Shown here in pieces: positions 1,198-51,461 of a DNA stretch of 64,000 nucleotides. Source of the stretch: Octopus vulgaris (Eukaryota); assembly GCA_951406725.2 (NCBI GenBank), contig OX597814.1, positions 110,422,001 to 110,486,000 of the forward strand. Reading direction: 5' to 3'. The position numbers were made by a program, and so were the translations under genes. The notes below the pieces were generated by a model. It was not told the DNA's origin. It saw only the letters and a list, made by a program, of their open reading frames with translations, and searched no databases. Each line of letters starts with the position of its first letter. The stretch's first letter is position 1.

Positions 1198-1211
1198 TTA
1201 ATATTCTTTAG
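1198..1211 (-). CDS. BRME1: Putative last coding exon (exon 7) of BRME1-like gene; 3' UTR continues leftwards
   Basis: TTTCAG acceptor (AG at 1213-1212). The phase-1 junction with exon 6 gives A-K-E-Y-stop (TAA at 1200-1198). Very short, so the weakest part of the model. Confidence 0.4.
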
Positions 1212-1929
1212 CTGAAATGTTTTTCCTTCATCTTTTTCTATTTTATCTATTTATCTCTTATTTCCTTCTCCGTTTTAAAATGAGACTATCATTAAACTAA
1301 ACCTTATGCTTTCTGTATCAATCTTATTATTCAATCATTTATTTTTTAAGTAACATTTAACTTCTTTTCAATACAAGTCAACAAAGGCATTATTACAGGA
1401 GTTAACACCTTCAGATTTATTCATAAAGGATCTCCTCTTAAACAAACTTGTGGTTTAAAGTTAGTAAGTAAAGGAAAGAAAAATATTTCAAAAACCCTGA
1501 GTACAAATGAAACTAAGTCTTATATCCTTTGTACCAAGAAGTAGTTATGCATTCTTCCCAAGAACCCTATTAGCCTGATATACATTGGAGTGCTACCAAG
1601 TTACTTGCCAGGGTCATTTAGATTCCCACTACTTGATGTGTGAATGTATGAGTGTGTATGTTTTATGTAGATGTAAATGAAAAACAGTTGGGTATTTAAA
1701 TACAGGGATCAGTCAATTGTTTTCAGAAGAGTACTCTATATGTTTTACAAAGAAAAATTTCAGAAACTGATGACAGCAAGTAAGCCAAAACTTCAATGTC
1801 ACTGTTATCTTTGATACCCTTCCTAACATCAACCACTTTGAGAGTGTAGTGGGTACTTTCTATGTACCACCAGCACATAAAAAGCACCCACTACATTCTC
1901 AGAGTGGTTGACATTAGGAAAGGCATATA

Positions 1930-2176
1930 TCATCATCATCGTTTAACATCCGTTTTCCATGCTAGCATGGGTTGGACAGTTCAACCGGGGTCTGGGAAGC
2001 AAGGAGGCTGCACCAGGCTCCAGTCTGGTCTAGCAGTGTTTCTACAGCTGGATGCCCTTCCTAACACCAACCACTCTGTGAGTGCAGTAGGTGCTTTTTA
2101 CGTGCCACTGACACAGGTGCCAGGGGAGGCTGGCAGCAGCCACGACCGGTTGGTGCTTTTTACATGCCACCAGCAC
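1930..2176 (-). mobile_element. RTE-type LINE 3' tail
   Basis: Reverse complement of the recurrent GGTTGGCGTTAGGAAGGGCATCCAGCTGTAGAA...CCATGCCAGCATGGAAAACGGACGTTAAACGATGATGAT tail. Confidence 0.8.
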
Positions 2177-2221
2177 TATCTATCTATCTATCTATCTATC
2201 TATATATATATATTTTATTTT

Positions 2222-3381
2222 TTTGTTTTTATTTTATCTAGTTTCAGCTCACGAGCTGTGGCCATGCTGGGGCACCACCATTCGGTGTTGCAACATGATT
2301 TTATTTCACAAATGCTTTTTAGCAATTGACATTTGGTGCATGAGAGAGTTTGATGCAGCTACCCTCATCTGCACCTCCTGCTGTGAAGTTGGTTCATCTG
2401 GGACACCTAACAGGAAAAGGTCCAACTTTATTTTAAAGACATCTGCATCCACCCCATGCAGGTCTCTCAGGTCCTTCGGGAGGATATTGAAGAGCTGTGA
2501 ACCTCTGAAGCCCAGGCTATCACAGTATCTTGTCCTACATCTTGATGGCAAATTTGGAGTCCTTGGCACTATGCAGTGGCATCCAGTTCTAGTATTTGTG
2601 CAACTCTCGATGCCAAAGTTTGGGACAAGTCCTTCCAGGATCTTCCCGATGTATATTATGGCATATCTTTCTTGCCTATGCTCTAAGGAATAGAGTCTTA
2701 ATCTCTTGAGTCTTTCCCAATAGCTTATATGCTGCACAGAGGCTATCTTCTTTGTGTAGCTTCATTGGATCGCCTCCAGTTCTGAGATTAATTTGACACT
2801 GGTTGGTGACCATAGCCGAGAGCAATAGTCAAAGTGGCTTAGGACAAGTGTCCTCCAGAGGACCATCATGGTTTCCTGGTTTCTTGTTCTAAAAGCTCTA
2901 AGAATCCATCCGGTCAGCCGCCAACATTTCATTGCCAATTTAGCAACATGCACATGAAAGGTTGCATCATTACTCATGTAAATACCCAGGTCTCGCACTG
3001 ATTGTGCCTCTGGGATTGCAATCCCTCCAGGTCCAGTGTATTTATTGGGTATTGCATTTACTTTTGCATGCTGATAGCATAAAGCTTGAAACTTTTCAGC
3101 ATTGAACTGCATGCTATTCTTTTCAGCCCACTTGTATATTTTGTCCAGGTCACATTGCAGGTGCATAGTATCTTCAGGGTTCTGTATTACCTGTGAAACT
3201 TTTGTATCATCTGCATAACTTGTGATCATGGCTCTCTGCGTGGCTGAGGGCATGTCTGAGAGGACCATTATAAACAGCAGTGGTCCCAAAACAGTGCCTT
3301 GCGGGACACCCGCTCACTATTTGCATGTTATTTGAGGTGGCCCCATTGGCTACTACCACCTGACTTCTATCCTTCAGAAAG

Positions 3382-3384
<3 letters not shown>
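2222..3384 (-). mobile_element. 5'-truncated CR1-group LINE (RT C-terminal half and 3' tail)
   Basis: ORFs 2762-3289 and 2306-2737 give (P)QGTVLGPLLF, YADDTK, DLGI, DYCSRLWSP and YWERLKRLRLYSLE; one frameshift and one stop; 5' end abuts (TA)n. Confidence 0.9.
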
Positions 3385-3422
<38 letters not shown>

Positions 3423-3879
3423 CATATATATATACATACATATATGTGCTAATGACCTGCTTCTTAGAAGTATTTGATCACAGAGTAACAGAAGCTATTC
3501 TAATAGCAATAGAAAAGGTAGTAGAGATTACATTGAGTGTACACTCTTCATCAGTCATCTTTATCAATCTTTCATGCACCCCTGCACCATCACTATATAA
3601 CATGGGACAGTACTATCCATTCTCCCTTCTCTCTTTCTCTCACTAACTCCTGACTGTTCTTTCCTTTCTATTAAAATCAAGTCTCCTCTGTTACTTTCTC
3701 CTCAAACATCTCTCACAACAATAAATCTGTTCATTCCATCATACTTTCACTTCTCTCTACACCTCCTCTAAAACCATCACTATTTCATATTCTCTCTCTC
3801 GTTCTTGGAACTCTACAAGGTGGCTGGAAAATCAAGCAGAGAAAACGTAATGTTGAGAGGACTCTAGTTTTGCTGAAGG

Positions 3880-5760: not shown

Positions 5761-6547
5761 ATGCAAGTATGTTGTCAGGCACATATACATTTATACAGAC
5801 TGGTATGTACATTTACATGTATGTATAAACATATGTGTGCATATCACTGCATGTGCCTGTAATACAGACATGTATAGGGAGTTAAGCCTAGTGTGTATAT
5901 ATGTGTGTGCATGTTTTGGAGAGACTGTTAGCGTGAGTAGTAATAATTTGGTCATTCTAACTGATAGTATACTAGATAGTGAATCAGATCACAAGTTGAT
6001 CAAGACAAGACCCCACTTCCATGTCACATATTACACCCTTTTACCTCTTTTTCCATCCACTATTTAATATTGTGCACATCTTCAGCCACTATGTCACTTC
6101 TGGGAAAAAGATATATATTCACATTCACATCAAAACTAATGTAGTAACTGAACATACTCACCAAGGATAAAGATAAGATAATTATCATTATATATACAAT
6201 TTTCTCATCACTTTTTCAGTAAGGATGGTAGTCTATGCTTTGCTAACGATGTCTAATAAGGCTGAAACATGGTCAGAGTTATTTCCTATACTTAGCCCAA
6301 ATTATTAAAATAATATTTATCATCAAATAAATGTTATCTTTTCTTCACTGCATTCTTTTACTTGTTTCAGTCATTTCACTGTGGCTATGCTGGAGCACCA
6401 CCTTAAAAAGTGTTAGTTGAAGAAATCAACCCCAGGGTTTAGTCTTTGTAAGCCTAGTACTTATTTTATCGGTCTCTTTTGCCAAACCACTAAGTTACAG
6501 GGACATAAACAACCAGCATATGTTCTCAAGCAATGGCAGAGGAACAA

Positions 6548-6587
<40 letters not shown>

Positions 6588-8409
6588 GTCCGCATGGATA
6601 ATGGTGCACTTGCTTTTAATGATTCGGAAAAGAAAGATGCTTGGAGGAGCCATTATGAAAGACTGTTGAACGTGGAGAATGAGTGTGAGGAGGAGAGCCT
6701 GCCAAATGTTGATCCAGTAGAGGGACCAGCTATCCGAATAGACAGCACCCTGGTAGGTAAAGCAATTAAGGATATGAAGCCAGGAAAAGCCCCCGGCCCA
6801 TCAAGAATCACTGCTGAGATGCTTAAAATATCTGGTGGTGTGGGCTATGGCTTAGTCACTCGTATTGTAAACAAGGTAGTTCATGATGGAGTCATATCCA
6901 ATGATTGGCGTAGCAGCACCATAGAACTAGAGAAGAAATTTCAGGTTTGGAAGCAAGGTTTAGAACTGAAGGGCCTTAAAGTCAATGTTGCAAAGACCAA
7001 AGTTCTAGTAAGAAGGAAGGCGAACACATCACACACCTCTTCAGGTAGGTGGCCCTGCTCAATTTGTAGAAAAGGTGTAAGTAGAAATTCCATAAGATGT
7101 ACCCAGTGTAATCTACGGACACTTGAGAGGTGCAGTGACATCAAAGGAAGATTAACCAGGAAGATAGCTTTCACGTGTAGCAGATGCACAAGGGCAATAA
7201 ACACTGAAGATGAAAGAAGAAAATAGACTCCATCACATGCAGGGGGAGAAACTAGAAGTAGTTGAAAGCTTCCACTACCTAGGTGACCAAGTCTGTAGTG
7301 GGGGTGGTTGCTCAGAGAGTGTTACCACTAAGAATAAGAATAGGCTGGGCAAAGTTCAGAAAGCTTCTACTCCTACTGGTGACAAAAAGCCTCTCGCTCA
7401 GAGAGATAGGTAGATTTTATGATACCTGTGTGCAAACTGCCATGCATTACGGCAGTGAAACATGCGCCGTGACTGCTGAAGATATGTGTAGGCTCGAAAG
7501 AAATGAAGCTAGCATGATCTGCTGGATGTGTAATGTCAGTGTGCACACACAACAGAGTGTAAGCGTCCTGAGAGAAATGGTAGACATAAGAAGCATTGGA
7601 TGTGGCGTGCAAGAGAGACATGCGTTGGTATGGTCATGTACTGCGGATAGATGAGAAGAGCTGTGTGAAGAAGTGCCACTCCCAGACAGTGGAAGGAATC
7701 CGGGGTAGAGGGAGACCCAGGAAGACATGGGATGAGGCAGTGAAGCATGGACATCAAACGTTGGGTCTCACAGAGGCAATGACAAAAGACCAAGACCTCT
7801 GGAGGTATGCTGTGACTGAGAAGACCCAGCAAATAAAGTGAGTCCACAGCTGTAACCTACACCAGTGTCGCATAACCAGCCCACTCAAAAGTACCTTGGA
7901 TTGTAGGGCAACATGCCATGCTTGAGGAGAGCTATTGAGTCAAGTACATCAACACCAAATCAAATGGAAATTGTAGTTGTGAGCCCCATGCTGGTAGCAC
8001 ATAAAAAGCACCATCCGTACATGGCTGATGCCAGTGCCACCTTGACTAGCTTCCATGCTGGTGGCACATAAAAAGCACCATCTGAATGTGGTCGATGCCG
8101 AGTCAAGTACATCAACATCAGCAATATCAAAATCAAAACAAATGGAAATTGTAGTTGTGATCCCCGTGCCAGTAGCACGTAAAAAGCATCATCTGAACGT
8201 GGTTGATGCTAGCTCCTCTGGCCCCTTGTGCTGGTAGCACGTAAAAGCACCCACTACACTCTCGGAGTGGTTGGCGTTAGGAAGGGCAACCAGCTGCAGA
8301 AACACTGCCAGATCAGATTGGGGCCTGGTGCAGCCTTCTGGCTTCCTAGACCCCAGTCGAACTGTCCAACCCATGCCAGCATAGAAAACGGACGTTAAAT
8401 GATGATGAT
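6588..8409 (+). mobile_element. RTE-clade LINE remnant with internal deletion and repeat-bearing 3' UTR
   Basis: ORFs give MKPGKAPGPSRITAEMLK, GLKVNVAKTK, a Cys-rich insert, FHYLGD, YGSET, MRWYGHVLR and RGRGRPRKTW; ends in (GAT)n. Confidence 0.9.
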
Positions 8410-9668: not shown

Positions 9669-11277
9669 ATAAACATCTTTTAAAATTGCATTTTCAAACC
9701 TTCTTTCATATATAATTCCACTCGTGCGGTACCTTACAACTCCACTTTGTTATATATATATATATATATATACATACATACACATGCACACACATACACA
9801 AAGGGCTTCTTCCAGTTTCTATCTACCAAATCCATTCATAAGGCTTTGGTTGGACCAATGCTATAGTAGAAGTCACTTGCCAAAGGTGCCACATAGTGGG
9901 ACTGAACCTGGAACCATGCAGTTGAGAAGCAAGCTTCTTACCACTTTTTTTTCATTTTTGGTTAACTGCATTAAATATGTTAACACTACCAAAAACATTC
10001 CCTATTTAGTAGTTTTCTCACCAAAGACAGTTGCCCCAAAAAAGCCACTAAAGAATTACTTTATACACCAAACTGACATGTAAAAGTCAATAATCACTTT
10101 CAAAGTTAAAAAGAAATATAATTAAGAAATTTGTAAAGTACTTAAAAAAAACTAATGTAAACCAACAAATCTCCCTTAAGGTCTGTAAAAACTAGTTGAC
10201 AGCTGACTTTCAATAGCACTGTGTCACTCATCTGAATGAACAATGAAACTGACTCTTTATACTTTATAATACTACCAGGAAATAAAACACAATCTAACAG
10301 TATATGTGTGTTCTAAACAACTTGCATGACTTCATCCACGATGTAATTGTTTCAGTTTACACTACTTACCAAGCAAGTACAATACTCAAAAGAGTGAGTG
10401 AGTGAGTGTGCCTGTCTGTGTGTGTGTATATATAGACAATTTCAGGTATATCAAGTATCATACGATATATATTCTTGATTTATAAAAATTAACTCCACCA
10501 CTGGAGGATGCAACATGAAATGGTAATTGAGAACAGTGCCTTATGAGAAGGGAAGACAATCTTCAGACTCAAGAATTCTATAAAATTAGCTTATCATTAA
10601 CCTGTTGATGGTAGGAAAGGGGCACATGAATGTGCATGCCAAACAAGTAAAAACAAAAAAAATATCACTTTTTCTTAAGGATAATTTTAATACTTATTTT
10701 CACTTTAAATAAGAACATTATCTATAATAATTGTTGGTCTTTTGCACAATAAAATTTTTGAAAACCTCAATTGATGGTGTCAGCTGTTCTCTAATGAAAC
10801 ATCAGTTGATGATAAGGGTTTAAGAAAAGGACAGGTTTAGTGTCTAGAGATGAAAGCACAGTAGTAGACATGTTTCTACCTCAGCATGACAATTGTCCTA
10901 CTTTATCTTCAGCAGCCAAAGGACATAGACATATACAGAAAGAGTAGATCACATTTATGGTTTAGACAATTTTCATAAATTAAACAAAAATTGGCAGAGA
11001 AATAACTCAGAGTGGATAGCGGCATGTACATGAACAACACAGACAATTATAAGAATATCAAAAACCATACAACATAAATTCTTAATTTATTAAAATTATT
11101 CTCCATTGAAATATCACATATGTACACAGTCAGCATGTGTGTATGTTTGTTAATTGGTTTAAAGATAATCAAAAATGACTTTGAAAAGTTATTTTTTGTT
11201 AGTGGGGGGCAGGGGTTTAAGTTAATCTGAAAATAATAAATAGACTGTGAAAAGCAATAAAAATAACTAAAATTTAC

Positions 11278-11393
11278 CTAAAAATGTTTGAAGTGTTCCT
11301 TGCTTTTTAATGATATTCTGAGAAGTTGACTGAGCATTTCTCTTCTGTCTAAAAGCATTTTCCATTTCTCTTTGTGAACGAATAATAAATTTG
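11278..11393 (-). CDS. BRME1: BRME1-like gene coding exon 6 (116 nt)
   Basis: TTTCAG acceptor and GTAAAT donor; phase 2 to 1; encodes (N)KFIIRSQREMENAFRQKRNAQSTSQNIIKKQGTLQTFL, continuing the helix begun in exon 5. Confidence 0.85.
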
Positions 11394-11482
11394 CTGAAAA
11401 TTTGAACAGAGAAAGAAACAAAATTTTAATACAATTTTATCAAACCAGACTGCAATTGAATTTTGAATATTCAGCATATATA

Positions 11483-11690
11483 AGGCAACGAGTTAGCAGA
11501 ATTGTTAGCACACTGGACAAAATGTCTAGCAGCATTTCATCCATCTTTACATTCTGAGTTCAAATTCTGCTGGGGTTGACTTTGCCATTCATCCTTTCGG
11601 AATCAATAAGTACCATTTGAACACTGGGGTCAATGTAATTGACTTATCCCTGCCCACAAAATTGCTGGCCTTGTATCAAAATTTGAAACC
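11483..11690 (+). mobile_element. Old SINE (second family)
   Basis: GAGTTCAAATTC B-box-like motif; a related inverted copy lies at about 48120-48325. Confidence 0.6.
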
Positions 11691-11789
11691 AATATATATT
11701 ATGGGTAAATTAGGCATTAGGTAATCTGTTCTTATGTTTTCAATTCAAATCTGGTGTTGTTTCTAAACCTCAAGAAGTTAGAAATAGTG

Positions 11790-13090
11790 TCCCTTTGATG
11801 CCAGTGCCCCTTGACTGGCTCCCATGCCGGTGACATGTAAAAAGTACCATCCAAAAGTGGTCAATGCCAGTGCCCCAACTGGTTCCCATGCTGGAGGCAC
11901 ATAAAAAGAACCATCCGAATGTGGTCAATGCCAGGTCCGCCTGACTGGTTCCAGTGCCCGTAGCACATAAAAGCACTATCCAAACGTGATCAATGCCAGG
12001 GCCCCCTGACTGGCTCCCATGCTAGTGGCACGTAAAGTGGTTGGCATTAGGAAGGGCATCCAGCTGTAGAAACATTGCCAGATCAGATTGGAGCCTGGTG
12101 CAGCCACTGGCTTTCCAGACCTCAGTCAAATCGTCCAACCCATACCAGCATGGAAAACAGACGTTAAACGATAATGATGAGGAGCCTGATCATAAATGTT
12201 ATCCTATCCTAACACTGATTACATTCTCATCAATATCTATAAATCTGAAATCTACTTCAAATTATGAAAGATCAAACCAACCCCACACTTCTCACTACAC
12301 CCAGTTATTGCTTCTCTGAACATTCCCCCTCCCCTTCTAGGATTCCCTACCTACTCTTTGTCTTATCAGAAAATGTTGACAAACGTTTAAGTCAAACGTT
12401 AATGACATTAATTTCGCTATTCTGGGAGAGTCTGCAAGAGCAATAGCTACTACCTCTTCCTCCAAACCAAGCAATTTAAAAAAAGTAACAATCTTTAAAA
12501 TTACCTGAAGGTTTAAAAGTCATAAATTGAGTATTGAATGACATATTACAAACACAAATAAATTGTTAATTGAAGCAGTTTATATTAATTATACAAACTG
12601 GTATTGTTGTTGTTTAGCCCCAGGCCTGTTCTGACTGACAGGCTTATAATCAATGGCATTCTTTTGGTGACTATTCTCTTTGTTTTAGATGAAATGTGTC
12701 TAACACTACATTATGCAAAGTGTCCTTTCCTATTTTAAAGAGCTGTGTGAATATGAGGGATAACCAATCGTGGCCGTTGCCAGCCTCCCCTGGCAAATAA
12801 AAAGCACCATCCGTATGTGGTCGATGCCAGCGCCACTATGACTGGCTTCTGTGCCGGTGGCATGTAAAAAGCACCAACCGATCGTGGCCGTTGCCAGCTT
12901 CCCCTGGCACCTGTGCCAGTGGCACATAAAAAGCACCCACTACACTCATGGAGTGGTTGGCGTTAAGAAGGGCACCCAGCTGTAGAAACATTGCCAGATC
13001 AGACTGGAGCCTGGTGCAGCCATCTGGTTCGCCAGTCCTCAGTCAAACCCATGCCAGCATGGAAAACAGACATTAAATGATGATGATGAT
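11790..13090 (+). mobile_element. Two RTE 3'-UTR fragments (11790-12180, 12765-13090)
   Basis: Tandem GGCACRTAAAAAGCACC units followed by the conserved tail and (GAT)n. Confidence 0.8.
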
Positions 13091-15773
13091 TTCTAGTAGG
13101 TTGAATGACCATTTTAAAGACTTCACTGGATCAAACTATAAAAACTACTGATATATAATGTAACCATTGAAAGACTAAGTGAGAAAAAAAAAGAAAGAAA
13201 GAAATCAAGTGATTGGTGCATACAAGAGTGTGTTAGCATCATCATGTATTGAGAGAAATTGTATAGGAGCAGATTAGATATGTGCAAGTTTAAGAAAACT
13301 ATATTATTAGTAAATGACAGCTTGTAAATTAAACTGTGTGAATGAAGTGTTGTTGATTTGAGACATATATTGATGCTATTCAGATCATATTATAACTGCT
13401 TCTTCTGTCAACTACAAATTATACATGTGTCAAACATGATGGACCACATATTCTGTGACTCATAGAATTTATGTGGCATTGTTCTATCATTAGGTCTTTC
13501 AAAGTTAATAATAACTGGGATCACACCAGCTTCTGGGGCTTACACCCTCATCTGTTCTTAAAGCACAAGCAGTACTAAGAAGATTTGTTCAGATTTCTTG
13601 ACTGCACTGTCTCACTTGAAGAAACTTGGTAGACATTAACATCAATTAACAGAATTGAATCCAATACTTTACTGGTATTTAATTTTATCAAATCTCAGAG
13701 AGATTTAAACATTAAGGCACAACTAAATCGTGCAAGGTATTTTGTCCACGACTAATTTACTATCTTATACCATACATAACAATTATGGATATCAAATTAG
13801 TCATAAAATCTAGAAGATATTTACAGGTGATTAGTGAGAAATATATTTTCATAGTTGAATTTTTTTAACCAGAAAGATGGAATTTCATCTTAACATCTTT
13901 GACACCTTCAAAATCATTCTGAATTCCATTTTTTATATTGATTCCATACACAACTTTAATGTAACAGATTTATAAAAGTAAAAGAAATTCAGTAATGTAA
14001 GTGCCTTTTTCAAAAGTGTTAGGAATGTTAGTGCAGTCTTAATTTAAAGTCATGAAAGAAGACAAAACAACTGAATTAAGAGTAATTACACTCAGATAAA
14101 ATTCATAATATAGCTAGCTCTCCCTTTCGTCAAACATACAACTGACCCTTAATTATAAAGTAAACAGTGGGGTCTGAGTAAATTAGTGGACTGTGTCAGC
14201 TTATTATGAAAACAAGAAGTTAAAAAATGGAATAAATTGGTTTGTCCAGAAAAGGTAAAGTCTAACAATTTCAGATAGTATCCTTCATCACAGAGAGATT
14301 ATAAAAGATTTTCTGATGGTACTGAATAGAAAGAACTCCTGTTCAACAAACAGTGTGACATCCATGAAGATTTCAAGAACAAAACAAGAATGTAACCTAT
14401 TTCCATGTAAGGTAATAGTTTCCCATTACTGGACATGTTTTTGCAGATTACTGGAAATGAATGACATTCATTTACAACAACCGCACAATGTCAAGACAAG
14501 AAGATAAAAAACACACACAACAGGTTCCTATAAGTTTCCATCTACCAAATCCGCTCACACGGTATTGGTTGACCTAAAGGTTATCATAGCAGTCCAAGCT
14601 GCCATACAGTAAGACTGAATCCAAAACTATGTGGTTGGGAAGCAAACTTCTTAACCACACAATCACACCTGCACCTTTTATAAGTATACAGGTAAAGAAG
14701 TTCAATGGAGACAATATTACAAGCTTATCATTTCAGTCTCATCTTTCTTTCCTTCATTTCTTTATTTTACCTCTGTCTTCCTCAATTCAAATAATAGTCA
14801 TCCCCCACCTCAAAGCCACCATTCCCTACATCTATCCTTCAAACCCTACCCAATCTTTACAATTGTTGCCTACCTTCCATTTCTTCATTCTTTGCTCTTC
14901 TATGCACCCTTAGCAAACCCTCACCCCAATACTCTTAATAATTCTGTCAACTCACTTCTACTCACCTCATACATTGAGGAGTCACCTGGATAGCTCATCA
15001 CCATTATTTTTATTTATCTCTTTGCAGTTCCTCCTGGATAATTTCAACCTCTCTTCTAAATGCGAGTAGCCATGCAGTTCCTCTACACCAAGAACCTACT
15101 CTTGTACTTTAACCCTCACTCACTCACACAGACACCCCTAACATAAAACTGTTCCACCACCACCTCCTCAGCTTTCATAGTTTTGTGAGCTGCATGGCAA
15201 CCTTACTAATACTGGTGGTACAAAACAAAATAAAAAGGAAAAAACGCAGTCAGTACATGCAGTTTTAAAGTGGTTGGCATTAGGAAGGACATTCAGCCAT
15301 AGAAACCATGCTAAAGCAGAGAGTGGAATATGATGCAGCTCTTGGACCTACTGCATTCTATCTAATGGACCCATTTGATTCTAACCCATGCCAGCATGGA
15401 ACATGGTGATGATGTATGCATATCTACTTTGCTTTTTCCCCTTTTTCTCTGCTATTGAAATCTACTTTTATCTAACCTATTTTGATTACTTAAATATATA
15501 CAGTTTCTCATTTAGCTTATTTTGTTTAGAATGTTTTGTGTTTTTCTTTGTTTCTTTCTTTGTCACCTTTAATATTTTGCTCTTTCGTAACACTATCATG
15601 TGAATACCATATCAGAATTTATCAATATTTAATATTGATCTTCTGATATTTCTATTGAGTTTTCCTAATGACTACAGACATAAATACAAAAAAAAAACTT
15701 AATTGAAAGCCTAGAGAACAACTTGAGGACAGATATAACTTAAGAATGACATTTAACACAATATTTCTCTCTC

Positions 15774-15817
<44 letters not shown>

Positions 15818-16566
15818 ATATACATCCATGCACATTAATCTGAACAAAATTTTAAACTGCATTTTTTTTCCAGTAAGAACATCTGAACTTGTGTGACCCC
15901 ATTAGTGAAAAAAAAAGAAGAAATCATTAAAATTCCTGTTAACAATCCAAATTACAAATCATTTCAGTGGAATATACTTCATAACTTTCAATGAATTTTA
16001 TCAAATATCTTGATTTGCAGTATTTCCAAAAATAGGCAAATTTAAAAGTATGACCTATAATTATTTAAATTTTTTTAAAAAATCTATTCTCACTCAAAGC
16101 TGCAGATTTTAATTTGTTTTGCATTATCAAATATAACATTTACATGACCATTATATTTTAATATAAATCTGATGATCATCATAAAACATATGACTATCAT
16201 ATCACAAAACCTCTAAGACATTTCATATTTGACAACTCAGCATTTCTGTGTAGAATAATTCTACGGGGAAAGGTGCAGTATATAAATATGAATCAGTTAT
16301 GAGATTAAGATGTTAGACAAAGTAAAAAAACATAAGACTGGGATTTCAAACCTCTCTACAGCTGGTGTATTGGGTCCCTAGAAATGATACATAATTATAC
16401 TTATGCCTGTGTGCAAGGCAGCAGACAGCAGGTTTCACTTATGTTTCAGAAATGAATGGTAAGTAATGGAAAAGAAAAAACAAAAGCAAACTCATATATT
16501 AACAATACGTAAATCTATATTCTCAAAAATCACTTCACTCCTTCTAACAAAGAAATGGGAGCATGC

Positions 16567-16600
<34 letters not shown>

Positions 16601-16859
16601 TTATGTATATATGAATTATATCTATTTGCATAAAATATGTATATAAAAAAAAATTTTTTAATAATAAAATCTCGCTTAGTGATTCTCTCCCCTTGATAGA
16701 AGTTTCTCCCCGCCCTTCAATTTCTTATCAAACCCTATTTCTCTCTGCCTCTGAGGCTGAAAACAACCACAGGGGACAACAGCAGCAACAAAGGTGGTTA
16801 CCAGTTACATTTTACACACACACACACATGTATATTTACATATACTCTTATTCTTATAT

Positions 16860-17230
16860 TTGTTTCAGTCATTTGACTGTGGCCACTCTGGAGCACTGCC
16901 TTTAGTCGAGCAAATCGACCCAAGAACATTCTTTGTAAGCCTAGTACTTATTCTATCAGTCTCTTTTGCTGAACAGCTATGTTACAGGGACATAAACACA
17001 CCAACATCGGTTGTCAAGTGATGGTGGCAGGGACAAACACAAGCACACACACACATATATATACACAACAGACTTCTTTCAGTTTCCATCTACCAAATCC
17101 ACTCACAAGGCTTTGGTTGGCCCAAGGCTATAGTAGAAGACATTTGCCCAAGGTGCCACACAGTGGGCCTGAACCCAGAACCATGTGGTTGGTAAGCAAG
17201 CTACTTACCACACAACCACACCTGTACCTA
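16860..17230 (-). mobile_element. tRNA-derived SINE (major family)
   Basis: Reverse complement of the 21514-21925 copy. Confidence 0.85.
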
Positions 17231-17269
17231 TAAACATAGCCATATATGTTATGTGATGACCTGTCAAAC

Positions 17270-17848
17270 CAAGTGATATCATAGTTGTGGTTGACACCAG
17301 TGTCGGCTGACTGGCACCTATGCTGGTGACACATAAAAAGCACCATTCAAGTCATTGGGCCTCATGGAGGCAGTGACATCAAGTCAATGAGATCGTAGTC
17401 ATAGCCAATGCCAGTATTGTGCAACTGGCCTGTTAAAAACATCCTTCAATCATTGGGTAATATGCTATACTTGGGAAGGCTTGTTGAACCAAGTGAAATC
17501 ATAGTCGTGGCCAATGCCAGTGCCATCTGACTGGTACCCATGAACTGTTCGAGTATTGGGCCTCATGGAGGTAGTGACAGGTGAACAAGACCCTTGGCAA
17601 TATACCATGCTTATGTAGACCTGTCAAGCCAAGTGAGACCATAGTCGTGGCCAATGCCAGTGTGGGGTCAATGACACCTGTGCTGTGCTGTCAAACATTA
17701 AAAAACCCATTACACTCTCAGAGTGGTTGGCATTAGGAAGGGCATCCAGCCAAATCAAATTGGAACCTGGTGCACCCCACCCCAGTTTTCAAACTGTCCA
17801 ACCCATGCCAGCATGTAAAGCAGACATTAAATGATGATGATGATGATA
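17270..17848 (+). mobile_element. RTE 3'-UTR fragment with degenerate tandem units
   Basis: Repeated CAAGTGAnATCATAGTCGTGGCCAATGCCAGT units followed by the conserved tail. Confidence 0.75.
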
Positions 17849-17871
17849 ACTGTGTGTGTATATATATATAT

Positions 17872-18416
17872 AGATGAGAAAGTTGGTTTGTGAAAGCACG
17901 TGGTTGAATATATAGAAAATAGTAAAAAGTGAAAAAACTACAGAAGGCTTGTTTTAAAAGGTTAAAAAATATATATTTGAGTCAATATGTCTGAAGAATA
18001 TTATAAATTTTTTTCTTACAATGACATAGTTTAGAAGAAATGACCGGTTTCGCGTTTAGCTTTTCAAATTTCTTACAGCGTTATGTTTATGTTGAGAAGA
18101 GTTCTAGATAAGGGGAGGTAATAAGTGATTTCTTCCGGTGTAAGGGAGATAATCGCTTAAAATTTTTTGTCTTTCCTTTGGAGTGAATTTCTCTGTATAA
18201 GTATGTTGGAATGGTTAAGTCTGGGCTTGTACTTTTCAATGAAGAATGTTTCCTTGTTTAGTCTAATTTGTGTTGGTGTTCCGATAGCACATTGGTAAAA
18301 TGGAAAGATTAAAAATTGTGGTAGTAGTTGCTTTGCGCATTTCTCAATGTGCTCACTAAAAGGTATCATTCTGTATTCTGGGAATGCAATCTGTTGTCGA
18401 TGCAGTGTGCATCTAC

Positions 18417-18418
<2 letters not shown>
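17872..18418 (-). mobile_element. Penelope-like element 3' remnant (GIY-YIG C-terminus and 3' UTR)
   Basis: ORF 18157-18468 contains HIEKC...IRLNKETFFIEKYKPRLN, a GIY-YIG E...P.LN-type ending; hammerhead motif downstream; flanked by (TA)n. Confidence 0.75.
18035..18074 (-). ncRNA. Minimal type-I hammerhead motif (U3-A8 core)
   Basis: AAGAAAT-TTGAAAA-GC taaac GC-GAAAC-CG-GTC-ATTTCTT, with a perfect 7-bp stem I. Confidence 0.7.
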
Positions 18419-18472
<54 letters not shown>

Positions 18473-21400
18473 TGTACTGGGTGCGTTTTTCATGGTACCA
18501 ACACTAGTGAGGTTACCAAGACAAAGAAGTTTCTCAACCAAGTGAGGTTGTAGTAATGGAGGTGGTATGTGGATGTTGTAATGCTAAAATATGAGAGAGA
18601 TAGGCACAGCTATCTTGCAGGGCTATATTACAAGACATGAGAGTGAGTGGGAGTAGCTGGAAGGAAAATAAGGTATTGATGACAAAGTATCTGAGCATGC
18701 TCTCAAGGTACATGAAGGCAAGTATAAAAGAGTATACAAATTGAGGATAGGGAGGTTGGATGGATAAGTTCATAGGAATGCAAGGGGACAGTGACAGGTG
18801 GCTAGAAATAGGGTAGAGGTTAACACAGTAAATGATGTACAAGGGAAAGGTATGGTTGCTGGTAAATTTCAGTATGGGGGAGAAGGTAAGAGAAATAGCT
18901 CAGGAAGGAGATGATAATTAACAATACAAGCAACTGTAGATAGATAAGAAAATAAGGGAGAGTGGGTGAAATACAGAGATATATGGGGACACAGATGAAG
19001 GTCAGAGGTACAGAATGGTGGCTCTAGTGAGTTGGTGGGGGGGGGACAAAAGTAGGAGACATTAACAGTTAAGAAGAGAAGGTATTGAGAATGATGGCAG
19101 GTATACAAGAATGTTAAAGATGACAAGTGATTCCAAGGAACGGAGGGAAGGGGGGTAACTAGCAGCACAAAGGAGAAAAAATATGTACATCTTCTGCTGT
19201 CATGATTACAACAGCTGAATAGTATCACTGTTAGAAGAGTGATAGAGCGATGGGTGTTAGGAAAATGAAAGTAGAGAAAAACTTGATGGGGATAGACTGA
19301 ACACAGGGGAAGAGACTAATAAGTGTATAGACATAAACCTAATGCTTTTAGGACCTCACTTTTGCTGTGGCACCCAACTGTAGTAACCTATGCTTGTATG
19401 AAAAAAAAACAGGCATAATGTACAAATATGTAGATACATATAACAAATATAACATAAGCATTCAAAACAGATATATCACTGTCCTGTAATCTACACATTT
19501 TGATCTTTCACCAAACATATTGTAGTTAATATATTATAGAATATTAATGGTGTTATTGGTGATGTCCAACATCAAATACTGAATATTTTAATATAAAGTA
19601 GATAGTTTGGCATGGCATACACGCAAAAACAATGTATAGATGCAGATAAAATTTCTAAAATCAATAGTGATGACGTATTTTGAATTTCTGCAGAAATCAA
19701 TAACAGTGAATAATGTTGTCACGCTAATTGGATCGTTATATAAGATAAATTACATCATTATCAAGATAACAACTAGCAATATCACTTTATGTTATTCGTG
19801 AAACAAACAAACAAAAAAACACTTTCACCTGTGATATTTCCTTTAAGAAATAAAAATGAATATTTCATTGATTCTTTACCTCATTTATATTTATGAAATA
19901 ACATATTTGGCATCACTTGTTGATTGATATAGAAGAGAACAATGATGTCCAAAACAAACAATGGTCACTACGGGATTCCATAAAAACCAAACAGGTCAAG
20001 TATTGAAACAAACTGATCACTACAAGATACCAGAGAACAATGAGATCCATTATCGGAATAAGTAGTGATCACTACAGGACACTAATGAACAAAGTGCTCA
20101 AGTATGAAAAGAAACAGTGGCAGCTACAAAACATTGTAGTCAAATAACACCTAAAGAACATTCTGTTAGACTCAACATAGTTTGGACCACCAAAGATGTC
20201 ACCACTAAAAGACTTGACTTGCCACTTAACATTACCTCAAGAGGATGACTAAAGAATGTAGCAACAGCTTACAGCTCTTTGGAGATCAATGTGAAGGTGG
20301 AAAGAAGCTGACTCATTTAATAACATTGAAATCTAAGACAGAAACAAACGAACAATAAGTAGCATAAATATCATCTTGTAGTTTAATGACATTAATACAT
20401 CTTGTAACTGCTTTGTATTTATAGAGAGAACATATGTAATCTTTCATCCAGACATTATCAATGTAGTGTAAACAAAACATTTTATATATGGGAATGTCAT
20501 TCCTGGACTGGGTGGCACATTGTGTCTTGAGAAAGTGAGTTCTTTTCATGTTGCTCAAGTCTGCTAAACCAAAAATGAACACCATCTAGTGCAGCCAAAC
20601 CCTGCCCCTCTCTCTCTTTCTCTCTCTCTCCAGTAATCACAGCTGAATGTTTCATAAGATTAAATGCTTAGATCTGCCTGCAACAATGTAGGTACCTAAA
20701 ACGATTCAGTCATGCTCACTTATGTGTGTAATGATTTGGTTTTAAAATGGAATCAATAGTTTATTTTTATTTATCAAGTTAAAACAAAAATATATTCTTT
20801 ATATTTGTGTTAATTTCAATATATTGGTTAGAATTGTCCAGATCAACAAATTCAAACATTTATATCAGTGCTTGTTAGGTCAATATAATTAGTATCAATC
20901 AAATAGATCAGTGATATTTAATGAGATTGAATAAAACGCGAAAAATCATAAAATTGATATTTATAAATTCTACACCCATCACCACAAGAGTAAAGTGGTG
21001 CAGATATTGGCATTCTTGTTGACTTCATGACGAGTCACTCCACACTTTCAAAGATCTGGAGAATAAAGATATCCCTTAACTATAAAAAGAGAAGGCTGGT
21101 GACAGGAAGTACATCCAGTCATAAATCCTTTCTTAAATTTCCAGTGTGCATATAATCTGTTGTGTGAGCATGCTGACATTGCACATCCAGCAGAGGACAC
21201 TAGATTCATTCCTTTCTAGTCTTGACACATCCACTGCATTCAAGGCTCACATTACTGTTTGTACAGAAGTCTCATACAATTTGTTTTTCACTCTGAGAAA
21301 GAGAGAGAGAGACCGTTCATTGTTCTACTGAGAATCAAATATGATTTCCAAGAAACTACTGATTACAAAGAAGTAGAGATTATTTTAAAACCAGGGTGAG

Positions 21401-29214: not shown

Positions 29215-31721
29215 CTTTCATGTGAAAAGCAGAATTGTTTGATGATGAAGATGACTGTGGAAGTTTCAATGGTAAGGTGGTTGTCATTGTGATTTCACTG
29301 TTGCTATTACTTTTCTCAAGAGGTTTTACAATTGATGTAAGACTGGATACAGAATTAGTTTCCTTTACCAAATGGTGTAGCACATTCTTAGGCTGACTTT
29401 TAATGTTTTCACTATCAATTACAGGTTTTAATTTAATTTTGTCTTTAGAAATTTGTCTGAAAGAATCAGCTATTTCACTTGTGTCACCAATAAGCTTAGA
29501 AAAAGAACTCAATGTTTCTAACTCAAACAATTTTTGACTTGTTTGTTCCTTTGCTTGCTGCTCAGCTAATTGTTCTTTTGCTTTCATCTCTGGTTGATTT
29601 TCCTTCACTTTTACCCCAAAGAATTTTTCAGATGTCTTTTGCACATCCAATTGTTTCAGTGTCTCTAGCTCAGAGAAATGTTTTTCTGTTTGAATATCTG
29701 GCAATTGTTTCTTTACCTCTACTGCAAACAACTTGTTTCTTACTGATGGATCAGATGCAGGCACTCTTTGTTGATTTGGTAAATATGCTATTTCTAGATC
29801 TGGTTTCTTTCCTTGCTGTAAATCTGTCAGGTGTTCCACTTGTTGACTACACATATGATCAGTGTTCTGTTGATGTAGCAAATATTCTGTTCTCTTCAAA
29901 TCAAGTAGATGGTTTGTTTCTTGTGGTTGTGGAAGACAGTCTGTGGTCTGTAGATCAAGCATGGAGTCCACACCCTTGAGACCCGATGGATGATCTACTT
30001 TCTGTAAATTAGGCAGGTGATCTACTCTTGGTAGATCAAGAAAGAGGTCCTTTGTCTTTAGATCTGGGTGGCACACAGCTGTTGGTGCTTCTGGACAGCA
30101 TTCGACTGTCGGATCTGGGCAGCACTCTGCTGTCAGTGGATCTGGGTGGTACTCATCTGTTGGTGCCTCTGGATGGTGCTTGACCTTCAGTGCCTCTAGG
30201 TGCTGAACATCTGTTGGTGCCTCTGGGTGCCGCTCAGCTGTCAATGGATCTAGACAATGCTTGGCTGTCAATGGATCTGAGCAATGCTTGGCTGTCAATG
30301 GATCTGGGCGGCACGTGACTGTTGGTGGATTTGGGCAGCGCTCAGCTGTTGGTGCTTCTGGCCAGTGCTTGGCTGTCGATGGATTTGGGTGGTACTCAGC
30401 TTCTGGGTGGCATTCAGCTGTCAATGCCTCTGCCCAGCACTCAGCTGGTGGTGCTTCAGCCTGGTGCTCAGCTGCCGGTGTCTCTGCCTGTTGTTCAGCC
30501 ATTGATGTTTCTGCTTGGTGCTCAGCTGTCAATGGATCTGGCCAGCAGTCAGCTGTTGGTGGATCTGGTTGATGCTCAGATTTCAGTGGATCAGGCCAGC
30601 AATCAGCAGCCGGTGGATTTGGAACATGTTCAGCTGATGGTGGACCTAGAAGGTGCTTTATTATCTGAAGATCTGGCATTTTCTCTCCTGTCTGAAGACC
30701 TAATAATTGACCTTTTGCCTGTAGATCTGAAAGTGCATCCTTTGCTCGTAAACCTGGAAAATTTTCTTTTGTCTGTAAATTTAATTGTTGTGTTTCAATA
30801 TGCAAAGGTAATAGCTGTTTTCCTGACTGAATTTCTGACATTTTCCCAACTGTCTTAATATCAGGTAAATGCTCATTATACAAATTACAGTTTAATCCTT
30901 TAGATAAATTCAGAGTAACTTCCTTATTTACATTAATATTAGTTTGAAAGCTTTCTTTCGCAGATAAAATAATTTGATTATCATTGCTATTAGGAAAATT
31001 ACTTTCCAGTTTCTCACTTTGAAGTGGTAACTTACTCTCACATTCTATTTCTGATATGGAAGAACTAGGAATATTAGAAATGTCAATGTTGGGATTATTC
31101 TCACTACAAATTGATATTGCACACTTATCTTTTGGAATAGTTTCTAGAAAGCTGATAACTCCATCTCTGTTTTTAATATCTTCATTTAGAATGTCAGATT
31201 TCAGAGCACACAGTTCTAAACCTGAAGACATGGCCAAATAAGCCTCAGATTGTTTCACACTTACATCTTCCATAGAAGAAATCAATTTTTCACAATTAGG
31301 TGATTTGTATTCCATTTCTATCTTTCTTACACAATCAACAGTGTTAGAATTCTCAGACAGTTCCAAATGGCTTCCATCTTTGCAGTTTAGTCTGTCTTCA
31401 TTAAGAATCTCCGCTGAAGTTTGATTATCAGATTTAGAATCGTTATTCTTTTTAACCTCAGTCATTTCAAGCTTCTGTAGTTTACTTTCCTTCAAATCAG
31501 CAGCTTGTGATTCTACACAGATCTTTTCTATGTCAGCATTATCTGTACTTATTTGCAGTATTTGCTCAGACACATCACAAGAAGCTTTATTATTTCTATT
31601 TTCTGGTGCCATATTTATTTGTGTTATTTGTTCTACAGTAGGAGTATCATGAGTTGCTTTATCCTTTATTTTACTATGCTTTGGTTCATCTTGTTGCTCA
31701 TGAAATATGCTTTCGGGATTT
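29215..31721 (-). CDS. BRME1: BRME1-like gene coding exon 3 (2507 nt; low-complexity, repeat-containing)
   Basis: The 879-aa ORF frame stays open upstream of its Met to a TCTGTCCAG acceptor (31723-31722); AAG|GTAAAT donor at 29214; phases 2 and 1 fit the flanking exons. Confidence 0.9.
29540..30862 (-). repeat. Coding 27-bp (9-aa) tandem repeat
   Basis: Units such as DPLTAKHCS/DPLTAKHCL/DPLTAERHP/EAPTDEYHP; youngest core about 30060-30650, with diverged DLQxxxxLP-type flanks. Confidence 0.85.
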
Positions 31722-32072: not shown

Positions 32073-32759
32073 CCCTACTGGTGCTGGCCCCATATAAAAA
32101 GCATCAGTACTGGTCTTGCATAAAAAGCACCCTGTACACAGTGTAAAGTGATCAGCATTAGGAAGAGTATCTAGCCATCAAAACAATGTCAAAACAGACA
32201 ATGGAGCCTAGTATATTTCCCAGCCCAACCCATGACAGCATGGAAAACAGATGTTAAATGATGAGGTTGATGAATATATATATATATGTATGTATGTTGG
32301 GTTATGTTACTGGTACCATGTAACCCAGTACTACTTGTTACATGGTAGGGTCGTCAGCAACTAAACTGGCCCACTCCACCAATTTCACTTGAGGAGGAGG
32401 GTGTGTACTGGACACCCGGCAGGGTTAAAAACAAAACCTGTAAAAGGGTAGAAGAACTGCCAAACCACCTGAGGTGATGGAAGGAGGAGCTGCACTGGGA
32501 CTCAAGCTACAGAGTGACAAGGCCAGCGTGTTGGTGTTTCAGAGAGGGAATGAGATCCCAGAACTGGGCTCAAATACGAGTAGGCAGGAACTGTTTTCTG
32601 TGTGTGGGAAACTGCTGGGACACTACCCGATTGCATGATGGCACCGGACAGCATGCAGCTTCATCAAGAGGCGAGCTGAAGGAGTGAGGTGGAGTGATAA
32701 CATGGGTGAGAAGACAACTGCCATGATGCAAGAAGTCTTGGAGAGTGTGACTGCAGAGG

Positions 32760-34600
32760 ACCCAGTAAGAGGGAACTGTAAGAGGGTATGTGCCCAAATT
32801 GAAGAAGGGGATCATGTGGTGTGATGCCAGCAGCATAGCAACGGAAGTTGTCCTGGAAATTGGAGGTGTTGTGGTGGAGGATACGGCCTGGCTTAAGAAG
32901 AAGGACGACTGCAACCACATCAATGTGGCGGAGCTGGATGCCATGTTGAAAGGGCTGAAACTGGCCCTGAGGTAGGGGCTGCATACCATCGAGATCCAGA
33001 CCAATTTGGCCACTGTACTTAGATGGGTGGGATCAGTGATCATTGGCAAGCGGAGTGTGCAAACCAAAAGGGGTGCAGAGATGCTGATAAAATGCCATTT
33101 GGGAATTCTGGGCAAGCTAGCTGCCAAGTTTAACCTGAGGTTGAGTGTGGTTTTTGTACCCTCTGAGAGGAATAGAGCAGATGTCCTAACCAGAGTAAAG
33201 AAAGCCTGGCTGCAGGTGCCAGAGGATCTGGAGCAAGGAGTGGCTGCAGTGTATCGACTGAGTGACTCGGAGCTGAGGAGATTGCATGCCATGCATCACG
33301 TGGGGGTGGACAGGACTCTGTTCCTTGCCAGGAAAGTTGACTCTGATGTGACTAAGCAGAGTGTGCAAAGAGTAGTTGGGAGCTGTGACAGGTGCCAGTC
33401 CATTGACCCCACTCTGGTGTGCATGAGGCAGGAAGCATTCCAGTGGAACACAACTGGAAACGACTGGCAGTGGACGTCACACACTTCGGGCAGGGGACAC
33501 ACCTCTCGATGGTCGACTACGGACTGGGGTGTTTGGCCATATGGAGAGAAATGAAGACAGATATTCCTAGAATGAGGCCCTGTGGATGAGCTGCTTGTAG
33601 ACAATGGCACTGCATTTCGCTTGGAGGTGCTGGGGAAATGCTTGACAAGTGGCATGTCAGCCGTTTCTTCAGGGCAGTATACCGGCCAAGTGGTAATGGG
33701 GTTGTGGAGAGGCATCATTGTACCATCAAGACCATAGCAGAGAAGGACAACATCTCACTGGTCGAGGCCATTTTTTGGTATAATATGTTACCCAAGACGA
33801 AACAGGCTGAGGTGTCAGTGCCACACAGGGCAATAGTCAAGTAGAAGTGGAGACATCCATGTACCACATCGCCACATCTCGCAGAAGAGAAGGTGCATGC
33901 CTTTGTGCAGGTTGCGGAAGAAGTCTGGGTTAAACCCCCAAATGCATAGTGCACATCACAATGGAAAAAGAGGACAATAACCTCTGGGAATTCGAGGAAC
34001 AATGTGTCTGTAGATGACGTGCCATGACATTTTTTGGATGTGTGCAGGATCATCACTGCGACAGAGGATGGGGCCAACAGTAATGGACAAGAGGACGAAG
34101 CTGGCAGCAACATACCAGGAACTGAAACCAGTCCTGAAGTCTCACAGTAGTAACAGAGGGAGCAGTGCCCTCCTCACTGGTTGGCTGATTAGGTGTCAAT
34201 TTAAGGCATGTGGTCAGGGTTGAAAAGAGGGTGTGGGCAGGTTGGTTGAATGATCTTAAGATCAGGGGGCATGCGAAATTATGAGCCAGGCTGTGTTGTA
34301 GGGAAGGCTCGGAAGTGAGGGAGTATGCATGTCCTGTCGGAAGTGGGGCCTGTGGGTCCCACTGGAAGTGCCGCAGTAGGCATGTGACATCGGGGAAGCA
34401 TGAGGAGTCAGTTGGTGGCGGACAGCACATCAGAGCAAATGTGTGAGACTGTACAGCAATGGATAGTGCATGTGAACATAGAGTGAACCTTGCAGATCAA
34501 GACAGCATGTGGATACTGAAAGTGATCCTTTTTCCGGACCGACAGGTAAGACTACTGTAATTCTCTCTTCGCTTCCATCTTTTACTTCCTTTACATCACA
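32760..34600 (+). mobile_element. Gypsy-type LTR retrotransposon remnant (RNase H, integrase, probable 3' LTR)
   Basis: WCDASS...HINVAELDAM (RNase H); H-x3-H...CDRCQ zinc finger; VDVTH, DNGTAF and GNGVVERHH (DDE integrase); purine tract AGGGGGCA then TG at about 34272, CA end near 34600; multiple stops. Confidence 0.85.
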
Positions 34601-48799: not shown

Positions 48800-48804
<5 letters not shown>

Positions 48805-48991
48805 ATCACTCAACTATCATGGGTGTTACATTCCAAAACACCCTGTGATAGGTGAAAATCTGAAGTAGAAACAGTGCTGTACGGTATATTTGTATATATT
48901 TTATTATAAATGCAAAACACCATGGAGGAATCAACATAAGCTTAAATAATAAGCCGCAATAGGTGAATCGCAATATGGTAAGGGATTACTG
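48800..48991. mobile_element. Tigger/pogo-like MITE, second copy
   Basis: Collinear with 4993-5193. Confidence 0.8.
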
Positions 48992-49636
48992 TATATATAC
49001 ACACACACATACATACATTCATACACACCAACACATATTATTCATTTGTACTTTTAACAAGCTTTTCCATGCTAGCATGTCTTGGAGGGGGTGGTAGTTG
49101 CAGGACAGTTTTTAAGGCCAGATGCTTTTCTGGGTGCCAAGCCTTGCCTGCTTTTTTAAATAGGGAATTTTTATTATTTTAGATGAAATTGAAAGTGCAG
49201 AAAATGTCAAAAGGTAACCAGTTATAGCCCAGCTATGAGGATGCCACTGTTTACAGCAGCAACTCAGTGCAGATTGTAAGCATTCATATAGACATATACA
49301 TAAATATATTCAATGGGCTTCTTTCAGCTTCCATCTACAAAATTCCCTGGTAAGTCACTAGTCACCCCAGGGCTATAGAATACACTTGCCCAAGATGCCA
49401 TGCAATGGGGCAAAACTTGAAGTTATGTAGCTGAGAAGCAAACTAGTCAATCACGTGGCTTCAGCCAACTACTACCCCTAACTTTGCATGTAACATTGCT
49501 ACTTCTAACTTGACTAAATTTTACCCAACTAATAACATTACCAGCTACAGTTGGAATTGTAATACTTCCAAATAATGCCCATTTAATTCTATTCTTTTAA
49601 CTAATATCATTTATAAGTGTATCATTACACCTCCTG

Positions 49637-50010
49637 TGGAGGTGCACTGGTCCAGTGGTTAGGGCAGCGGACTCGTGGTTGTAAGATCGCGGTTTCGATT
49701 CCCAGACTGGGCATTGTGAGTATTTATTGAGTGAAAACATCTAAAGCTCCACGAGGCTCCAGCAGGGGTTGGTGGCGAACCCTGCTGTACTCTTTCACTA
49801 CAACTGTCTCACTCTTTCTTCCTGTTTCTGTTGTATCTGTATTTCAAATGGCCAGCCTTATCACACTGTGTTACGCTGAAACTCCAAGAACTACGTTAAG
49901 GGTACACATGTCTGTGGAGTGCTCAGCCACTTGCACGTTAATTTCATGAGCAGACTGTTCCATTGATCGGATCAACTGGAAGCCTCGTTATTGTAACCAA
50001 TGGAGTACCA
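49637..50010 (+). mobile_element. tRNA-derived SINE (third family)
   Basis: TGGTCCAGTGGTTAGG A box and GGTTTCGATTCCC B box; head shared with 59859-60125 and, more loosely, 26590-26800 and 52550-52880. Confidence 0.75.
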
Positions 50011-50077
50011 CTAAAGATTACACCTAGCATCACTAAATTTCATATCTAATTCATTTAAAACAATATTTTATTTACAG

Positions 50078-50420
50078 ACGTGACTGTGTGGTAAGTTTGC
50101 TTCCCAACCACATAGTTCTGGGTTCAGTCCCACTGCATGCTACCTTGGGCAAGTGTCTTCTCTATTATAACCCTGGGCCAAACACAGAAAGAAGCCCGTT
50201 GTATATCTGTGTTGTTGTTGTTGTTTGTTCCCCACCACCACATAACCAGTGCTGGTTTATTTGTCCTCATAACTTAGTGGTTCAGCAAAAAAGACCAATA
50301 GAATAAGTACCAGGCTTAAAAAAGGAAAAAAATGTACTGGGATTAATTCAGTTTGCTCAACTAAACCCTTCAAGGCAGTGCCCCAGCATGGCTGCAGTCT
50401 TATGACAAACAAAATAGAAG
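50078..50420 (+). mobile_element. tRNA-derived SINE (major family)
   Basis: Collinear with 21514-21925, with a deletion. Confidence 0.75.
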
Positions 50421-51430
50421 ATTCTTTTAGGAATCCAAATAGAATATTCTTAACTTAAAGAAATAGAGCTTATATCAGGAAATGAAACGACAATGATATT
50501 CCTTTTAACATTAAAAGGAAAAAGACAAACAAATATTTTATAAAGATGTTTTATTAAATAAACATGTTGCTACACAACCACATGGTTCAGAGTTCAGCCC
50601 TACTGTGTGGCACCTCGGGCAAGTGTCTTCCTCTACAGCCATGTCAACCAAAGCCTTGTGAGTTGGTCTGGTAAAGGAAAATTGGAAGAAACCAGTCATA
50701 TGTGTGCATGTGTGAGAGAGAGAATGTGTTCCTGTCTTATGGCCACAAAGCCTTATGAGTGAATTTAATAGATGAAAATTGTGCGAATGTATGTGACAGT
50801 TGTAAATGAGTATCACCATCATGCAAGCAATATCCTTTGTTTTCAACTTTCTGTGAAAACATGTCCGGCTATGGGAAAATATTACCTTTTTTGGAAACAG
50901 GTAAGGATGGGCTGACAGGAAGAGCATTTGACCATACAAAATCTGCCTCAACAAATTCTGTCTAACCCATGCAAGTATGGAAAACTAGACATTAAAAGTA
51001 ATGATGATGTGCATCTTAAAGACTAATAATCTTCAATAAGAGCTGATACCATGAAGATTTTTTCTTTTAAAGTAAAAGCCACGTACAACTCAGCAATTCA
51101 TCAAATTTGGTATATAATATGTCATTATTACTCAAGGAAACTCAATCAATTGAAAGTGCTAAATTTAAATGGATCAGATAATTATTATTTCTGCTCTTTA
51201 CTATTATTGAGAGAATTACTATCAAGTAGAAACGGTATATATGTACTTTCTGGTCACATAGGGTTTTACTCTCTCTTAGATAAAGTTGTGAGTATTTAAA
51301 ATGTTGATTCAGTTCCACATTAAAGTTCTGTAGGAACTGTTTCAAAAACAACTGAGAACATGTTTTAATTATATATCCCATATATTTAGTTTAAATCTAT
51401 AACAATAAGCCTGGTTATTATTTTACTTAC

Positions 51431-51461
51431 ATGCATCGTTCTTTCTTTTCCTTATATCCAT
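51431..51461 (-). CDS. BRME1: BRME1-like gene first coding exon (exon spans 51431-51471; ATG at 51461)
   Basis: TTTTAG acceptor, AAAATGG start context, MDIRKRKNDA, GTAAGT donor; phase 1 matches exon 2. Confidence 0.72.

Follow-up and report, generated by a model that had tools for sequence, protein, structure and literature searches.

The window analyzed here is a stretch of 64,000 nucleotides (nt) of Octopus vulgaris DNA (assembly GCA_951406725.2, contig OX597814.1, positions 110,422,001–110,486,000 of the forward strand), in which a gene on the minus strand encodes a long acidic protein ending in a helix that resembles the MEILB2-binding helix of the vertebrate protein BRME1. An initial annotation, made from the sequence alone, had proposed seven minus-strand exons that splice in frame to 963 amino acids (aa). 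This splice indeed gives an uninterrupted frame of 963 aa and the peptides quoted for exons 4–6 are present on the minus strand of the window, but only six of the seven exons are upheld by AG/GT boundaries (exons 1–5 and the one starting at 11393); the seventh is wrong and a cassette exon had been missed. In its corrected structure the gene is real. Contigs from four sequencing runs of one study, presumably of RNA and without tissue label, were compared over 20 kb (9700–29699). In each of the four runs, one contig of 2.0–3.2 kb connects exon 3 at its end with the exons further downstream, with zero mismatches, so that the predicted joining of exon 3 with the helix exons is borne out; exon 4 was matched in the contigs of three runs, and in the fourth (X3) an unassigned stretch of 85 letters fits at its place.

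The coding sequence begins with exon 1 (51461–51431, minus strand like all features of the gene), which carries the start ATG and the basic N-terminus, ends in a GT donor, and matches the protein starts of O. sinensis and O. bimaculoides to 100%. Exon 2 (43609–43561) is present in the proteins of O. vulgaris, O. sinensis, and O. bimaculoides. The cassette exon of 72 nt (38036–37965), in frame and with AG/GT ends, was located by tblastn with the O. sinensis and O. bimaculoides proteins, and both forms are annotated in O. vulgaris, a record of 1168 aa without it and one of 1192 aa with it. Exons 1 and 2 and the cassette rest on the gene models of O. sinensis and O. bimaculoides. One contig starts precisely where exon 3 begins, a pattern that would be expected from a branch between two upstream exons. 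The protein comprises 986 aa with the cassette and 962 aa without it, and both forms match the annotated isoforms from residue 11 onward. Exon 3 (31721–29215, 2507 nt) is a single open reading frame (ORF) for a long acidic region without a Pfam domain, which is 100% identical to the annotated O. vulgaris protein, 90% to that of O. sinensis, and 79% to that of O. bimaculoides, all of them named hypothetical or uncharacterised; 73–98% of its words are present in the four runs, at low contig depth. It includes degenerate coding tandem repeats of 27/54 nt (30644–30125), rich in Pro, Ala, Glu, and Cys, and according to Tandem Repeats Finder and the protein alignment these repeats vary in length between Octopus species. 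Exon 4 (25856–25772), placed by the contig joins, carries the motif D[LF]TDSQ[IL]C (DLTDSQI at 25836–25816). Exon 5 (23293–23204), supported by contigs, alignments, and a structural model, encodes the first half of the predicted MEILB2-binding helix with V934 and L941 (986-aa numbering), and the coding part of the terminal exon (11393–11267), supported by contigs and annotated proteins, encodes the second half with I948, followed by FLGKF and a stop codon. The intron between these two exons (23204/11393) interrupts the helix in phase 2, within the Asn codon of its LN pair.

All four contigs run past the donor that had been proposed at 11278 and end at 11070–11072 in three runs and at 10787 in one. 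Because they continue past 11278 into the 3' untranslated region (UTR), exon 7 as proposed (1211–1198) is wrong and the protein ends in FLGKF, which is also the C-terminus of all five annotated Octopus proteins examined. The frame is closed by TAG at 11267, and an AATAAA at 11091–11086 lies approximately 15–20 bases before the contig ends at 11070–11072, giving a 3' UTR of 11266–11070 in three of the four runs. Exon 7 was rejected as well for its poor acceptor, with 5 pyrimidines of 20 compared to 11–16 in the real exons, and for being missing from the annotated proteins.

The octopus protein is acidic (isoelectric point 5.2, net charge −45), Pfam holds no family for the full-length O. vulgaris or O. 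sinensis protein, and the ESM Atlas model is of low confidence (predicted local distance difference test, pLDDT, 0.40). A search of 1.84 billion representatives returned two matches, the O. bimaculoides protein and a protein of the abalone Haliotis rubra (LOC124271180; E 4.6e-5), the latter being the sole match outside Octopus; further abalone relatives were found in H. cracherodii and H. asinina, and all are uncharacterised. Like the octopus protein, the abalone proteins are acidic and carry D[LF]TDSQ[IL]C followed by the same C-terminal helix, but they are shorter (503–533 aa) and only 22–26% identical over the whole alignment, with 35% identity between the octopus and abalone tails. The motif before the helix is kept in all five mollusc sequences aligned. 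The S-Q pair within the DSQ motif corresponds to the ATM/ATR consensus. In the three abalone proteins, TDSQ occurs a second time close to the N-terminus, at residues ~32–46.

The proposal that this gene is a BRME1 homologue has held up, in that BRME1 is the top match in Pfam, the PDB, and the ESM Atlas and no other family matches better. In Pfam, the last 100 aa of the octopus protein place Brme1 (PF15710) at the top of 24,736 models with E 0.021 and 14.1 bits, at profile positions 633–671, so that the predicted profile match ranks first although it remains below the curated gathering cut-off of 27 bits for this family of 699 positions. The match is confined to the helix at positions 631–671 of PF15710 and did not confirm the likeness to mammals that the initial annotation had claimed for the DSQ motif and the basic N-terminus. 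In the PDB, the best match of the same 100 aa among 177,635 sequences is human BRME1 (8A51_B; E 0.027), and the whole 915-aa O. sinensis protein also has 8A51_B first (E 0.49); in the ESM Atlas, both matches listed for the octopus tail are BRME1 clusters (0.77 and 0.76). No single one of these rankings would suffice by itself. The abalone tail matches Brme1 in Pfam with E 8.9e-4 and 18.6 bits, and its two matches in the PDB are both BRME1 chains. A profile built from just the octopus and abalone sequences gave human 8A51_B with E 2.4e-4 and mouse 7Z8Z_B with E 3.2e-3, the next entry following at 0.59. V934, L941, and I948 of the octopus align with the mouse residues V548, L555, and I562, and the abalone has I, L, and V at these positions. 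In mouse, these three residues form the core of a four-helix bundle and their replacement by glutamate abolishes binding (PMC11297322). Like vertebrate BRME1, also known as C19orf57 or MEIOK21, the octopus protein is long, acidic, and devoid of domains, and it has the V-L-I heptad core and the pattern EL..LN..I....R..E; BRME1 itself has been described as acidic, disordered, and free of domains (PMC7498267). The octopus protein differs in its length (962/986 aa compared to 600 in mouse and 668 in human BRME1), in its species-variable Pro/Cys-rich repeats, and in that no similarity was detected outside the helix.

The presence of the partner MEILB2, also called HSF2BP, in the same genome had been predicted too, and an orthologue was found at G000:C5 55663494-55955726. 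There, outside the window, six collinear exons spread over 292 kb with AG/GT ends splice to 251 aa without a stop; this six-exon model covers the gene between its first and its last exon. A second search pattern, built from HSF2BP residues named in the literature (PMC8322138), returned 56 matches compared to 41 in the control, of which one that resembled the expected helix was chosen by eye and its locus then walked. Two of the exons match HSF2BP chains in the PDB, one with E 3.2e-10, which was found later by a short motif scan inside the locus, and one with E 1.1e-6, a value that is partly circular because this exon was selected by the pattern. The first exon of the model aligns with the HSF2BP alpha1 chains, i.e., the BRME1-binding helix in 8A51 and 7Z8Z, with E 0.19 and 0.38. 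The order of alpha1, coiled coil, and ARM domain is the same as in vertebrate MEILB2/HSF2BP (7LDG, 7BDX, 8A50, 7Z8Z_A), and of 26 residues highlighted in the papers 18 are identical, 6 of these 18 having been required by the search pattern. In the ARM groove, the residues W132, G188, N192, G199, R200, M235, Y238, N239, I242, and N243 are all kept (the last five being part of the pattern), while C120, E122, M123, A127, V140, L186, E201, and one further position differ or are changed conservatively. An earlier search pattern was abandoned: it gave 74 matches compared to 63 in the control, inspection of 33 of the 74 in their sequence context yielded no genuine one, and the true exon carries Leu where this pattern required Met. 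An intron of the MEILB2 gene contains transposase-like fragments, mariner-like by eye (G000:C5:55776869-55777400).

A 2:2 model of the octopus BRME1-like helix with the octopus MEILB2 alpha1 reached a score of 0.66, compared to 0.06 for the best of three controls. The runs share at least 86% of their contacts, the pLDDT of the partner does not fall below 75, and all three core residues are located at the interface. Of solved pairs, 51 of 78 attain the score mark applied to complexes, compared to 2 of 108 mismatched ones; for eukaryotes the figures are 39 of 65 and 2 of 126. The mark is not calibrated for peptides. As in vertebrate BRME1, two C-terminal helices are thus predicted to pack in a 2:2 arrangement on MEILB2 helix alpha1, forming a four-helix bundle.

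On this evidence we consider it very likely that the octopus gene is the orthologue of BRME1, and we assign it to the BRME1 family as a probable new member, with helix, core residues, and architecture in agreement and the Pfam cut-off not reached by the whole protein. In mouse and human, BRME1 is reported to stabilise MEILB2, to block its self-association, and to tune BRCA2-MEILB2 oligomers for the loading of RAD51 and DMC1 (PMC7188823, PMC10610910). By analogy with the mouse, the octopus pair may help BRCA2 to load RAD51/DMC1 at meiotic DNA breaks, and such a full vertebrate-like role, with the BRME1 orthologue pairing with MEILB2, seems to us somewhat favoured. Germline expression, the contact to BRCA2, and a meiotic role in octopus are points that we only infer.

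Several observations weigh against this reading, beginning with BRCA2. The initial annotation had suggested that the BRCA2-MEILB2-BRME1 module as a whole exists in molluscs, and both the MEILB2 and the BRCA2 genes were indeed found, but the MEILB2-binding motif was not detected in BRCA2. Octopus BRCA2 lies on G000:C7 and is recognised by its BRC repeats (PF00634, E 6e-70, 11 stretches) and its helical domain (PF09169, E 2.3e-11). In a genomic translation of 100 kb of this locus, the repeat motif that binds MEILB2 (PMC8322138), which would be expected between the BRC repeats and the DNA-binding domain, did not occur above background: the best windows agree at five of seven positions, and there are two of them on the coding strand and three on the control strand. 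At the place where the motif would be expected, a candidate phase-compatible exon of 82 nt (G000:C7:60341965) bears a loose likeness to motif 1 and has no PDB match. BRME1 might therefore bind MEILB2 without the pair being docked on BRCA2 through the vertebrate two-repeat motif, and the meiotic action of the pair would then depend on a different partner in the ARM groove or on DNA. In favour of such a separation, the groove residues are all kept even though the motif does not rise above background, and in mouse the deletion of BRCA2 exon 12 disrupts the binding of HSF2BP without copying the phenotype of HSF2BP loss (PMC8322138). Speaking against it, the scan was of genomic sequence rather than of a transcript, and the motif may have diverged, be interrupted by an intron, or be absent from the assembly; the 82-nt candidate sits just where the motif should be. 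We regard this separation from BRCA2 as rather doubtful, and only tentatively do we go on to consider that MEILB2-BRME1 might be a meiotic module of ancient bilaterian origin which, in octopus, does without the BRCA2-docking motif of vertebrates. If this were true, the core job of the pair would not be the recruitment of BRCA2 via that motif, which would account for the intact mouse meiosis after the contact is broken and would hint at a further ligand of the conserved ARM groove. The BRCA2 locus also shows 11 near-identical BRC-type repeats with a spacing of 35 residues, and two further on, in what looks like a recent tandem expansion (G000:C7:60363753-60359900).

The remaining points concern the assignment of the pair itself. 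The homology is based on approximately 35 residues of an amphipathic helix, the scores of 14.1 and 18.6 bits for the octopus and abalone tails do not reach the cut-off of 27 bits, and at full length neither the octopus nor the abalone protein matches Brme1 in Pfam. For the single octopus query in the PDB, prefoldin follows near behind BRME1 (E 0.085). The Atlas score of 0.77 is below the 0.9 bar and thus a lead only, and with the abalone tail the Atlas feature search gave no usable match and the structure matches were generic helices. Word-indexed and HMMER sequence searches returned no vertebrate BRME1 and no relative outside the molluscs. On the MEILB2 side, the alpha1 exon (E 0.19) ranks behind a designed protein in the PDB, another exon (E 0.12) ranks behind AcrIIA4, and one exon is without a PDB match among the five exons covered by these searches (i.e., all but the coiled-coil exon). 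For the model of the helix on MEILB2, like complexes are already solved (8A51, 7Z8Z) and its score may merely reflect these known structures; therefore, it shows likeness and not binding. With such a short match, a Pfam score below threshold, other coiled coils ranking close for a single query, and a likeness to BRME1 that is confined to the helix, the protein could be an unrelated disordered mollusc protein whose terminal coiled-coil helix is BRME1-like by chance or convergence. This we consider improbable, since two divergent mollusc lineages with tails of 35% identity both put BRME1 first, the joint mollusc profile places BRME1 more than 100-fold in E ahead of the next match, the overall layout is the same as that of BRME1, and the predicted complex scores far above its three controls.

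In the literature, BRME1 has been presented as a protein conserved in vertebrates (PMC7188823; 10.1101/2020.02.14.950204), MEILB2 homologues are said to occur in vertebrates only (PMC6374363), and a 2026 preprint states that neither MEILB2 nor BRME1 shows sequence conservation outside vertebrates (10.64898/2026.06.19.733317). No mollusc report of BRME1 or MEILB2 was met with in the literature searched, which covered passages of the papers cited here and of 10.1101/2023.04.27.538421, 10.1101/2023.10.06.561239, and PMC7498267, and the readable text supplements of PMC8322138 make no mention of Octopus, Crassostrea, Nematostella, or invertebrate. SPATA22, a meiotic recombination factor that is a different protein from a different complex (with MEIOB as partner) and no relative, offers a precedent for such an extension of range: it was first titled vertebrate-specific, until searches with its short conserved parts revealed it in molluscs, echinoderms, and cnidarians (10.1101/2020.02.04.934042). 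Assigning the octopus gene to BRME1 contradicts the published restriction to vertebrates and opens a testable question on the BRCA2 contact, and it is likely that the pair exists in molluscs too. The finding extends the range of a known system and brings no new mechanism. In some invertebrates, genes already carry an HSF2BP-like label from automatic annotation, and given these labels the BRME1 assignment is the newer half of the pair. If the assignment is true, the presence of BRME1 and MEILB2 in a cephalopod, together with the BRME1-like genes of three abalones, would date the pair back to at least the protostome-deuterostome ancestor, and in worms and flies it would have been lost or have diverged. 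What is conserved in BRME1 as its core would then narrow to one helix and the short DSQ motif upstream of it, and a set of uncharacterised mollusc genes would receive a name and become candidate meiosis markers for farmed molluscs.

That the product is a larger protein in which this gene is fused to an upstream gene of 216 aa, as the O. vulgaris records of 1168 and 1192 aa have it by starting with the 216-aa protein, is very improbable, since O. bimaculoides, O. sinensis, and Argonauta each have this protein as a record of its own that ends in its own stop, the last exon of its gene reads through to that end in the O. vulgaris genome beyond the window, and the O. sinensis and O. bimaculoides models begin at exon 1; the fusion is probably an annotation error. 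The upstream gene itself lies at ~67,700-97,900 in the numbering of the window, on the minus strand, is near-identical in Octopus and Argonauta, and has no convincing Pfam family.

Elsewhere in the window, ORFs downstream of the gene (2306-3313 and 6417-7654) and in one of its introns (32570-33754) appear by eye to be fragments of a reverse transcriptase of a long interspersed nuclear element (LINE) or of an integrase of a long terminal repeat (LTR) element. Intronic repeats at 11550-13030, 16800-17800, 21500-22430, and 27700-28200 are covered deeply by contigs, which show numerous A>G and T>C differences that could stem from other copies of the repeats or from adenosine-to-inosine (A-to-I) editing.

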